This document shows positions 8,043-15,252 of a stretch of 64,000 nucleotides of DNA, one piece after another. The notes under the pieces are model-generated. The model searched no databases. It was not told the origin of the DNA and was given only the letters and a program-made list of their open reading frames with translations. Both the position numbers and the translations under genes were made by a program. The first letter of the stretch is position 1. Every line of letters starts with the position of its first letter. Source of the DNA: a virus (Duplodnaviria; Caudoviricetes). The DNA is taken from IMG/VR virus record IMGVR_UViG_3300021400_000063. One strand, 5' to 3'.

Positions 8043-8074
8043 TTGTAAACCTATTATTCTTTTTTGTATATTAT
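8043..8074 (+). promoter_or_regulatory. Early-type promoter TTGTAA-N18-TATATTAT
   Basis: Conserved motif and spacing. Confidence 0.65.
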
Positions 8075-11496: not shown

Positions 11497-13035
11497 ATGG
11501 CTTCAGCGTTAGAACTTGTTTCCGGTTTTTCATCTAAGAATGATGGAATGTTTAATGATAAATTGATTGTGGAGATCCGTAAAAAAGACGAGATGACTAA
11601 ATATATTGATGATGCTTGTAAAGCAGTTTGTCAATTGATTCCTGAATACGTTAAATATTTAGGATATCATTATCAGGATTCTCGTGGTAAAATGTTGGAA
11701 CGTGATAAAGATGATGAAGGTTCATTAAAGACTGCTAACAAAAATGAAATCAGAATCAATATTAATGATACATTTGCTAAGGAAGCTATATTTGATTTTG
11801 AATGTTCATTTGGAGGTACAACGCTTCATCAGTCATTCTCAATGTGGATTCCATTATTGATTGATAACTCTCACTTCTACATAAGAGGAAACAAGTATTC
11901 TTGTCCACTTCAGATTATTGATGCTATTACATTTACTAAGAAAAATGTATTAGTATTAAAAACAATGACTCGTGCTATAAAGTTCGAACGTCAAAAAACT
12001 ATCATTACTGATATTTTTGGAAAGAAGTATAACACTTCCAAAATCATGATTTATGTTACTCGTAAATGTATTCCAGTTCTTATCTATTTCTTCGCATATT
12101 TCGGTTTTTATAGAACTTTGGAATATTTCGGAGTAGATAAATGGATTAAGTTATATTCATTAAGTGAAAATGAAAAAACTCCAGATTTATCAGCTTTTCC
12201 AACAAATCAATACATATTTAAATTTGGTCAGGTTTATATGGGTGTTGACAAGCAAGCATTTGATGAAAACAATGTATTCCGTACATTTGTAGCTACAATC
12301 CTTGCTTCTCAAAAACGTTCAATGGATATGGATTATATCCGAAATGTTACACGTTGGACAATGCTTTTAGGAGAAAGTATTTCTATTCAGAAGTCAATGG
12401 AAAAAGGAATTGCTCTTCTTAAAACATTTAACAATTCTCTCGATTATCATACTCGTGAGATTATAAGTCAGTTAGTTCCAGGTACAGATAGATCAAATAT
12501 CTATGCTGTGGCAAGATGGATCTTCTGTAATTATGCATCTCTTACATCTAAAGACGATGGTCTTCAGAATAAACGTTTACGTCTTGGTGAATATTTGATT
12601 TCTCCATTTACAGTAATGTTTACAGAAAAGATTTATCGTTTTATGAACACTCCTGACAAACTTAAAACTATGGATGGATTGTTGGATGTATTTAAAATTA
12701 AATCTTCATTGATTCTTAATGCTATTATTGGTAAGATTTCACATCAGGTAACTGGTTTGACTATTGCTAAATTCAGTAGCGAATGTAATGATGATGCTTT
12801 AACAAATACATTGTTGATGGTAACTAAAACTGGTCCTGGATCTCCTTCAGCTAAATCAAAACGAGTTTCTACAGCACTTCGTCAATTCCCAATTGACTAC
12901 ATTGGCGCAATTAACTTTATTGAAGGTCAGTCTGCTGGTGCTCCTGGTTTGAGTCATTTTATCTGTCCATGTAATCAAACATTTGATATGGATAAGATGA
13001 CATTTGAAATTGATCCTGTTCTTATTAAGAAATAA
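11497..13035 (+). CDS. Phage RNA polymerase beta subunit, N-terminal part (probably nvRNAP)
   Basis: IPLLIDNSHFYIRGNKY..LQI (beta FIING-like), LQNKRLRLGEY, GPGS, PGLS; ends mid-beta as in split phage RNAPs. Confidence 0.8.
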   Translation: MASALELVSGFSSKNDGMFNDKLIVEIRKKDEMTKYIDDACKAVCQLIPEYVKYLGYHYQDSRGKMLERDKDDEGSLKTANKNEIRININDTFAKEAIFDFECSFGGTTLHQSFSMWIPLLIDNSHFYIRGNKYSCPLQIIDAITFTKKNVLVLKTMTRAIKFERQKTIITDIFGKKYNTSKIMIYVTRKCIPVLIYFFAYFGFYRTLEYFGVDKWIKLYSLSENEKTPDLSAFPTNQYIFKFGQVYMGVDKQAFDENNVFRTFVATILASQKRSMDMDYIRNVTRWTMLLGESISIQKSMEKGIALLKTFNNSLDYHTREIISQLVPGTDRSNIYAVARWIFCNYASLTSKDDGLQNKRLRLGEYLISPFTVMFTEKIYRFMNTPDKLKTMDGLLDVFKIKSSLILNAIIGKISHQVTGLTIAKFSSECNDDALTNTLLMVTKTGPGSPSAKSKRVSTALRQFPIDYIGAINFIEGQSAGAPGLSHFICPCNQTFDMDKMTFEIDPVLIKK

Positions 13036-13051
13036 AAAAGGTGTGTATATC

Positions 13052-13417
13052 ATGAATAAAATAATTAAATTGTGTCATAAAATATTTAAAAGAACGTTAG
13101 GCATTTATTGTTTGGGTTCGGGAGAAAAGGTTGGAACTGTAATTAGTAAAGCTCTTATAAAAGATGTTTCTATTAATACAGTTGATGTCTTAGAAAATGG
13201 AAAATATTATTTCCATTCCCACATTGAAATCACTACAGTCGATGATCATGTGTATAAAGTAAATACTCATGAGAGTTATGTGAGATACATTCCGGATATT
13301 CCACATAAAATGGGACTGTTTAAATATAACAAATACATAATGAAATTAATAAAAAGTCCATTTTGTGATTATACACTTGAAAACAGATCAGATACTACAT
13401 TTGAGTCTAATTCTTAA
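13052..13417 (+). CDS. Hypothetical protein (start revised to MNKIIK)
   Basis: AAGGTG SD before ATG 13052. Confidence 0.6.
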   Translation: MNKIIKLCHKIFKRTLGIYCLGSGEKVGTVISKALIKDVSINTVDVLENGKYYFHSHIEITTVDDHVYKVNTHESYVRYIPDIPHKMGLFKYNKYIMKLIKSPFCDYTLENRSDTTFESNS

Positions 13418-13420
13418 ATA

Positions 13421-13455
13421 ATATACACTGGAGGAATGAATCCTCCAGTGTATTT
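13421..13455. terminator. Intrinsic terminator hairpin, possibly bidirectional
   Basis: tacactggagga/tcctccagtgta inverted repeat. Confidence 0.75.
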
Positions 13456-13489
13456 ATATTATTTTTTCATTTATATATTTTATTTATGT

Positions 13490-13648
13490 CTAAGAAGAAT
13501 CATAGGTTTACAACCTAGTAGGAGAGAGTCTTGACGCAAGTCCCCGAAAGGGGCAACAGGACATGTAAACCGGTCACGTGAGTGCTCGATTACTAGGTAA
13601 ATGCATAAAATCCGAATGCGTTTCTTATAATTCTGCTTCGATTTTTTT
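13490..13648 (+). ncRNA. Candidate novel pseudoknotted structured RNA
   Basis: GC-enriched island; two crossing 8-bp helices, three GNRA-capped hairpins, closing stem; TTATATATT motif at 13471 and T-run at 13642-13649. Confidence 0.7.
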
Positions 13649-15252
13649 TATACGATCAAATGTTCTATACTGTTTTGGATTTCTTTTTTGTATTTTCCAA
13701 CAAAAACTTCTTTACATAAATCATCAATAGGTTTTAATATTTTTTCTTCAGTATCATGACTAACACCATTAATACGATCATCAATTAATCTATTATAAGC
13801 TTTTGTAAATAGAGACTTACTATTAGATTTACGATTTTGATAAACCTGTTCACTTATAGCAGTTAATTGATCAATTTGTAATTGAATTTGTTTTTTCTGA
13901 TCAGTAGTTAAATGTGTATTAGTTTGAATTTCGTGTACAAGATCAGTATACATATTTTGTAATCTTTGTTTATTTGTACCGTGTACATCATATTCACAAG
14001 TTTCCAAATATGTCTTATAAATATGATATTTATCGTACATACTCATACCATTATTTTTTTCCAAATAATCATCGACTATCGATGATAAGAAACTGTATGT
14101 TTCCGGTCCAAATCCGTATGATGTAGCGAAGATATCTGCGAAAAATTCCCATCGTTTGAAGAATGTTACTTTGGCATAAGTTTTATTTGTGAATCTAGAT
14201 AATGTTAATAATCTAACTAATCTAGTATCCATATTATCAAATTTACGAACCATTCTTTCCCAGAATTCTTTAAATTTACCACCTACTGGTTCTAAGTTTT
14301 TACAATTCTCCAAATATATTTTCCACTCATCTTTATTATTTTTTTCTAGATCTTTAATAAATTTATTACGATCATTATCTTTATTGATGTATGTTAATAT
14401 TTGTGTTGCTTGACTATTTTGTAAACTAGATCTAGTTTTATCATCACCATCATCAATTTTCTCAAGCTGATCTTTCATTCGTAGTGCTGTATTTTTATGT
14501 GCTAAGTTATTAGATAACTTTGCTAATTTTGCACCCAAACCAGAAAGTAAACCGGATGTGAATAAATATTGTGGGAAACATAAATAAGTGAAAATTATAA
14601 ATAAAAATCTGAAACCTACAATCTTAGTTAATCCTTGAATAAATTTAGGCATACTGTTTCTAAACATTTCTACAGCATGAGCACTAGCTGTCATCATTTG
14701 TGAAAATGTTATATCGGCTACATCTTTATAAACTCCAAAAATACCATCTTGGAAACAATGACCTAATTCATGTGCTATTACACCAGCAATAATTTCAGGT
14801 TCACATTTTTGAATTAAACCTTTATTAAGTTTTACACATAAAAGTTTATTTTTACTATTACGGTATTTATAACCTTCAGATGTAACAATGATATCTTCAA
14901 TATCAGCAATTTTATCCAAGTCAATGTTTACATTACCATACTTATCTTTTACAGTTGTGTTTGCTCTTATAAATATAGGATAAGCTGCAGCGTTTAATGT
15001 GTCATCTGGAATTAATAAAAATTTTACACTTTCTGCGTTAATATCTAATTTAACAGCTTCACCAAAATCAATAAGTATTGAATTTATCTTTTTCATAAAT
15101 TCTCTATTTTTGAATTTAGTATCGTCTACATTTTGTATTAGTTCCTTTAACTTATTAGCATAATTAATGAGATCTTGAGATAATGGAGAATCTAAACCAA
15201 AATATGCTTCATTTGATTTTTCCAAACTAGGGAAAAAATTAAAAAAATCCAT
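13648..15252 (-). CDS. Zincin metallopeptidase (M48-like), probable virion protein
   Basis: VIAHELGHCF (HExxH), EFFADIFATSYGFG, HGTNKQRL; hydrophobic segment; late-type promoter; N-terminal SLE/SNE sites. Confidence 0.75.
   Translation of the reverse strand: MDFFNFFPSLEKSNEAYFGLDSPLSQDLINYANKLKELIQNVDDTKFKNREFMKKINSILIDFGEAVKLDINAESVKFLLIPDDTLNAAAYPIFIRANTTVKDKYGNVNIDLDKIADIEDIIVTSEGYKYRNSKNKLLCVKLNKGLIQKCEPEIIAGVIAHELGHCFQDGIFGVYKDVADITFSQMMTASAHAVEMFRNSMPKFIQGLTKIVGFRFLFIIFTYLCFPQYLFTSGLLSGLGAKLAKLSNNLAHKNTALRMKDQLEKIDDGDDKTRSSLQNSQATQILTYINKDNDRNKFIKDLEKNNKDEWKIYLENCKNLEPVGGKFKEFWERMVRKFDNMDTRLVRLLTLSRFTNKTYAKVTFFKRWEFFADIFATSYGFGPETYSFLSSIVDDYLEKNNGMSMYDKYHIYKTYLETCEYDVHGTNKQRLQNMYTDLVHEIQTNTHLTTDQKKQIQLQIDQLTAISEQVYQNRKSNSKSLFTKAYNRLIDDRINGVSHDTEEKILKPIDDLCKEVFVGKYKKEIQNSIEHLIV

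Follow-up and report, generated by a model that had tools for sequence, protein, structure and literature searches.

A conserved, separately promoted structured RNA gene of an apparently undescribed family in a clade of AR9/PBS1-related jumbo phages

The window, i.e. the whole 64,000-nt stretch of viral DNA analysed here (IMGVR_UViG_3300021400_000063), has as its closest whole record the 276-kb virus contig G002. A 512-aa gene at 11497-13035 encodes a protein ~27% identical to a subunit of the AR9/PBS1 non-virion RNA polymerase, while phiR1-37 and jumbo phages of Listeria and Staphylococcus gave weaker matches. Further along lie a 121-aa ORF (13052-13417, + strand) and a terminator-like hairpin of 13 bp that reads on both strands (13423-13453); homologous loci also have a hairpin there. 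The ORF has like-sized counterparts in loci L010, L012 and L016 and none in L001 and L009, so its position is a variable insertion site. On the opposite strand, a convergent gene (13648-15252, - strand) encodes a 534-aa M48-like zincin (Pfam PF01435, 22.8 bits against a cut-off of 20.3). Its HEXGH and downstream EFFAD motifs are near-invariant in 26 homologs, and a tblastn search of GenBank phages with this protein gave no match.

Between the 121-aa ORF and the zincin stop codon lies a real RNA gene of this AR9/PBS1-related jumbo phage, on the + strand at about 13488-13649 (~162 nt). The model R2, built from the window's own sequence, matches 13488-13650, and a contig from an RNA library covers 13496-13649. 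The initial annotation had described a stand-alone, plus-strand structured RNA in a GC-enriched island, and every motif that it listed is present where it was placed; the G+C content is 51% in the RNA core and 29% in the whole window. Two perfect 8-bp helices cross each other (13505-13512 with 13564-13571, and 13513-13520 with 13591-13598), and 13488-13649 contains no further perfect 8-bp helix. A crossing pair of this kind occurred in 13 of 5000 dinucleotide shuffles, but when the AT-rich window was divided into 789 overlapping tiles of 162 nt, 30 of them had one too. Because of this tile frequency, and since the folding z-score is only about -2.1, the single sequence is suggestive rather than conclusive, and we regard the comparative evidence as the decisive one.

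The RNA is found at the same place in nine other loci. Eight of them (L001, L009-L013, L015, L016) were reached via relatives of the zincin with 55-98% identity, and L018 was added by a pattern scan. Compensatory changes among homologs, which had been proposed as a check on the element, do occur: in the alignment of the ten copies 96% of cells in helices are paired and 11 pairs are changed on both sides, a number reached in 0 of 500 shuffles (a test inflated by kinship) and compared with at most 4 in slid controls. With no more than about seven independent lineages, the covariation stays below R-scape grade. In the zincin tree, a 100/100 branch sets the RNA-bearing loci apart from the rest. 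In six divergent loci the 92-nt RNA core is 75-91% identical, against 49-54% at the four-fold sites of the zincin gene, whose synonymous sites are saturated near 50%. At the level of sequence comparison, this demonstrates purifying selection on the predicted nested fold (helices P2, P3, P4, P6, P7 and P8). The gene is conserved, single-copy, folded and separately promoted.

The distribution of the RNA is narrow. Loci whose zincins are 34-36% identical carry ordinary genes at the corresponding place and no RNA. Neither sequence nor structure models matched the RNA in G003 (94% complete), AR9, phiR1-37, LPJP1, PB50, BpSp or T4, and across 18 related virus records, most of them fragments, and five cultured phages they found nothing beyond G002. 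The first-look filter let through only 0-1 candidates in four phage records; given this and the many fragments, absence is soft. Pattern scans of viral and metagenome contigs matched only G002 and the one further close copy, L018, and BLAST of the RNA against phages and plasmids gave chance matches or none. A genome scan returned three matches, about the chance expectation, of which two fall within coding sequence and the third in a CRISPR spacer; this spacer, in an array of a Sphingomonadaceae MAG (L041:1900-2330), has ~21 bases in common with the P6 hairpin region, which is chance level. A looser scan gave nine matches, none of which scored with R2; it was built for a 6-nt P7 loop and is blind to the window's own variant. 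Three protein-derived loci end too near the gene to reveal the RNA. Its lack in related phages implies that the RNA is either dispensable for the core cycle of the lineage or has diverged past detection there. A literature search for the core sequence found no match, the viral catalogue of Fremin 2023 being outside its scope. The family therefore appears to be undescribed and its predicted fold new, known from one clade of uncultured jumbo phages from gut samples; "new" refers here to the fold and family and not to function.

The structure was derived from MFE folding from the predicted transcription start together with the alignment of the ten copies. An end-closing helix, P0, is predicted between 13496-13506 (the prediction reaching as far as the +1 G) and the region 13624-13649, which ends in a T-run (13642-13649). 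P0 is predicted in nine of ten homologs despite very different sequences and is absent from the prediction for L010. Concerning the two perfect crossing helices of the initial annotation, both are present in the window, and the second one (P2, 13513-13520 with 13591-13598) covaries strongly, with double-sided changes in six of eight pairs and 96% of cells paired. The first one, however, retains only a core of 3-5 bp and shows no covariation. In its place we suggest a shorter pseudoknot, PK1, in which the invariant UUUAC (13507-13511) pairs with GUA(A/U)(A/U): UAC/GUA provides three invariant pairs, and one or two more may form, each of the remaining two being U-U in two homologs. PK1 is plausible rather than proven, and the G+G ends of the original 8-bp helix are also claimed by P0 and by the putative PK2.

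A purine-rich internal loop and the 5' strand of P3 (13521-13526) follow P2. P3 pairs GAG with CUC (13585-13587) and becomes AAG/CUU in L011, a G-C to A-U compensation. The inner domain (13528-13562) consists of P4 (6 bp), P5 (2 bp, RYAA loop), P6 (4 bp, GNAA loop) and a CAR joiner; P4 and P6 are 100% paired, with one-sided changes only, and P6 is invariant in the alignment. The letters of the annotated GAC-GCAA-GTC hairpin are in place; at most two of its pairs form, one of them broken in L015, since the GTCTTG helix also uses its first G, and the CCCC hairpin its last C. The joining strand (13565-13573) carries the 3' strand of PK1 and then (C/U)GG, the putative 5' strand of PK2. It is followed by the P7 hairpin (13575-13584), whose GNRA-type loop is GUGA, GUAA, GCAA or AUAA among homologs, and, beyond the 3' strands of P3 and P2, by P8 (13599-13623), with double-sided changes in three pairs. 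A second short pseudoknot, PK2, is plausible and would join (C/U)GG to CC(G/A) in the P8 loop (13612-13614). As its third pair, six copies have C-G, two have U-A and two have C-A, and between the sister loci L009 and L012 both partners are changed; this hints weakly at such a pairing. Variants in metatranscriptomes keep the fold: GUGA is changed to GUAA, and run X4 has C-G where P0 otherwise has a C-A mismatch.

The initial annotation saw in this arrangement an echo of HDV-like ribozymes, with an enlarged P3 domain and self-cleavage 5' of G13505. HDV-like ribozymes (HDV, CPEB3, drz and the theta ribozymes of gut phages; PMC10879173) are likewise small with crossing helices, and share with our RNA a hairpin before the 3' strand of P2 and a GG that follows the first pseudoknot strand and could pair with CC. 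The strand order in the window is similar, with a 7-bp G-started helix followed by GG, a hairpin and a CGA joiner. However, in the ten homologs examined there is no P3/L3 stem that directly follows the 5' strand of P2 and directly precedes the 3' strand of P1, and a generous descriptor gave no sense-strand match in any of them while detecting 10/10 synthetic controls; no HDV family matched at E<=10. The joiner CUC pairs with GAG: C13585 is invariant and paired, and C13587, in the would-be C75 position, is replaced by U with a compensating A in L011, a C-to-U change that inactivates HDV-like ribozymes (PMC10879173). The 7-bp candidate for P1 has all its pairs in the window clade, is shortened or interrupted in L009-L015, and competes with P0. 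The GG is invariant with no L3 to form a P1.1, its best CC partner lying in the loop of the 3' hairpin P8. The proposed cleavage site falls inside the end-closing helix, and contigs from RNA libraries cross it, which hints in the same direction. Nor is the RNA fused to the 3' end of a tRNA. The HDV-like reading is thus largely refuted already, and such a ribozyme seems highly improbable here.

The view that the RNA matches no known family held up against the covariance models of Rfam 15: no family matched the window at gathering score or at E<=10, and in L009-L011 only a neighbouring tRNA-like gene was recovered. There is a likeness to the glycine aptamer (RF00504), with GGAGAG after the outer helix and a CCGAAAGG-like stretch; the match does not rise above noise (14.5 bits, E 5.1; cut-off 32), G002 gave none, the pairing is different and no plus-strand gene lies downstream. 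Bacterial RNase P RNA (RF00010/RF00011) has a similar strand order of closing helix, crossing helix, inserted domain and hairpin, and is twice as large. Its bulged-U helix P4 and its CR-I/CR-V consensus are absent from our RNA (alignment A2), and RF00011 did not match G002 at E<=10, whereas the controls worked. Resemblances to SRP helix 8, group I introns and twister fail on strand order or consensus. As phage-encoded intergenic RNAs of unknown function, the stable species 1 and 2 RNAs of T4 (rnaC, 139 nt; rnaD, 119 nt) and misc_4 (PMC4848604) of phiR1-37, a related phage, resemble our RNA; most copies of our RNA, by contrast, are outside tRNA clusters. No listed match of R2, run with filters off, overlaps rnaC or rnaD, and the plus-strand region of misc_4 had no model match.

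The gene appears to be transcribed on its own. In AR9, early promoters read AAATATATATTAT-(6N)-G and late ones AACA-(6N)-TA/G (PMC5312081). An early promoter of this type, used by the virion RNA polymerase, is predicted at 13472-13488 (+ strand). Its TATATATT motif, followed by eight bases and G, has the exact AR9 spacing in all ten copies of the RNA gene, which places the predicted start at G13488; at the motif level, the RNA gene is an AR9-type early transcription unit. Many genes of the window are preceded by this motif as well, and of its 11 intergenic plus-strand copies 10 have a purine at +1. There is no same-strand gene downstream and the upstream gene differs among homologs, so the RNA is not a leader. 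The hairpin at 13423-13453 would insulate it from upstream transcription and probably also ends the antisense zincin mRNA. Contigs from four metatranscriptomes of four studies touch the locus; they carry no information on strand or abundance and could partly stem from DNA. In run X9, a gut metatranscriptome, a single 154-nt contig corresponds exactly to 13496-13649; it aligns over its full length and is the run's only contig on the stretch, a weak hint of expression within the bounds of the gene. Contigs of runs X1 and X4 start at 13501 and 13461 and continue through the zincin gene, which would be expected of antisense read-through or of DNA, and X2 yielded fragments only.

That the RNA abuts the zincin stop codon and is antisense to the zincin 3' UTR, as the initial annotation had noted, was confirmed, the T-run abutting the stop in 8/8 homologs checked. 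The zincin gene has an AR9-type late promoter (AACA-N6-TA) in 11/11 loci, and the only terminator-like site near the RNA gene lies beyond it as seen from zincin, so that the late mRNA of the zincin gene probably extends across the RNA gene in antisense. Convergent type I antitoxins with overlapping 3' ends are known from Bacillus (RatA/txpA, SR4/bsrG). The RNA has the same geometry, with its 3' end overlapping the mRNA of a convergent partner, and one could imagine that, made early, it mainly prevents early expression of the protease from the late zincin mRNA. The partner, however, is a large protease rather than a short toxic peptide, and our RNA has a conserved tertiary-type fold. Moreover, antisense pairing is automatic and needs neither conserved sequence nor pseudoknots, yet the core is nearly invariant, and the phages with the 34-36% identical zincins do not carry the RNA at this position. 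We consider such a cis-antisense regulator quite unlikely as the main role.

Its own early promoter and T-run would also suit a trans-acting sRNA that pairs with host or phage mRNAs. A 19-nt complement of the RNA 5' end, with one mismatch, is found in the window at 8043-8061 (+ strand), the best of 60 shuffles reaching 17 nt; it sits just after a terminator hairpin. But this complement uses the variable strand of P0 and is not found in the loci of G002, and the conserved bases belong to helices or pseudoknots. Those conserved strands that lie outside the nested helices complement one another and hence leave no long free seed. A base-pairing sRNA is thus improbable. Still less credible, and very improbable in our view, is a DNA-level element or a replication primer instead of a free RNA. 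Transcripts do prime replication at the T4 and ColE1 origins, and the early promoter adjoins an AT-rich tract, but G-U pairs are tolerated, conservation of the GNRA loops is confined to the plus strand, and this strand folds more stably than the minus strand (-41.9 vs -34.2 kcal/mol).

Compact multi-junction RNAs with conserved GNRA loops and short pseudoknots are often riboswitch aptamers, ribozymes or RNP cores. The reading that we favour, tentatively and at somewhat less than an even chance, is that of an early, end-protected, protein-binding RNA which is silenced late in infection, when transcription of the convergent zincin gene runs through it in antisense. The injected virion RNA polymerase would make the RNA early, as inferred from AR9; P0 would pair both ends and thereby protect them from exonucleases; and the joining strand would fold back into two short pseudoknots, with the GNRA loops helping to form a compact globule. 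Since there is no downstream gene, the ends are paired and no free seed is left, the RNA may act in trans through its shape, possibly as a host-protein decoy or scaffold during takeover or counter-defence. Later, zincin mRNA crossing the gene in antisense up to the shared hairpin could switch it off.

A core that binds a ligand or is catalytic would account just as well for the invariant helices and short pseudoknots, and a late off-switch by read-through is compatible with such a core as it is with protein binding. Alternatively, then, the RNA may bind a small molecule, as a free aptamer or as a sponge for some metabolite or nucleotide signal, or be a ribozyme whose class is undescribed; we rate this as rather unlikely. 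Its multi-junction fold, invariant core and two short putative pseudoknots are shared with riboswitch aptamers and small ribozymes, and the faint glycine-aptamer resemblance points the same way, but there is neither an expression platform nor a downstream gene, the glycine family finds nothing in G002, both ends are paired, contigs span the whole element and no known catalytic motif is present. It is unlikely, but would be the most far-reaching outcome, that the RNA founds a new class that acts in the first minutes of infection, either as a double-pseudoknot ribozyme or as a free aptamer soaking up a host immune or stress signal, the RNA counterpart of sponge proteins.

New orphan motifs turn up in large numbers. 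Here, an own early phage promoter places the RNA in host takeover or counter-defence, and phage RNAs with a known role there are few. With 162 nt and ten natural variants, synthesis, probing and structure solution are cheap; genetics is not yet possible in this narrow, uncultured clade.

Directly upstream of the RNA homolog in L011 lies the tRNA-like gene mentioned above (L011:3065-3131, - strand; Rfam tRNA, 51.7 bits), which has its own early promoter, was missed by ARAGORN, has a 3-bp anticodon arm with a 6-nt loop and is preceded by GNRA-capped hairpins. TRNA-shaped genes without a normal anticodon are also found in G002 (L051:670-738, + strand) and G003 (L052, ~644-704, + strand); among these genes, one has the arm CAG-GAAA-CUG and another, of 61 nt, has no such arm. 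A two-base anticodon was called at L051:478-552.
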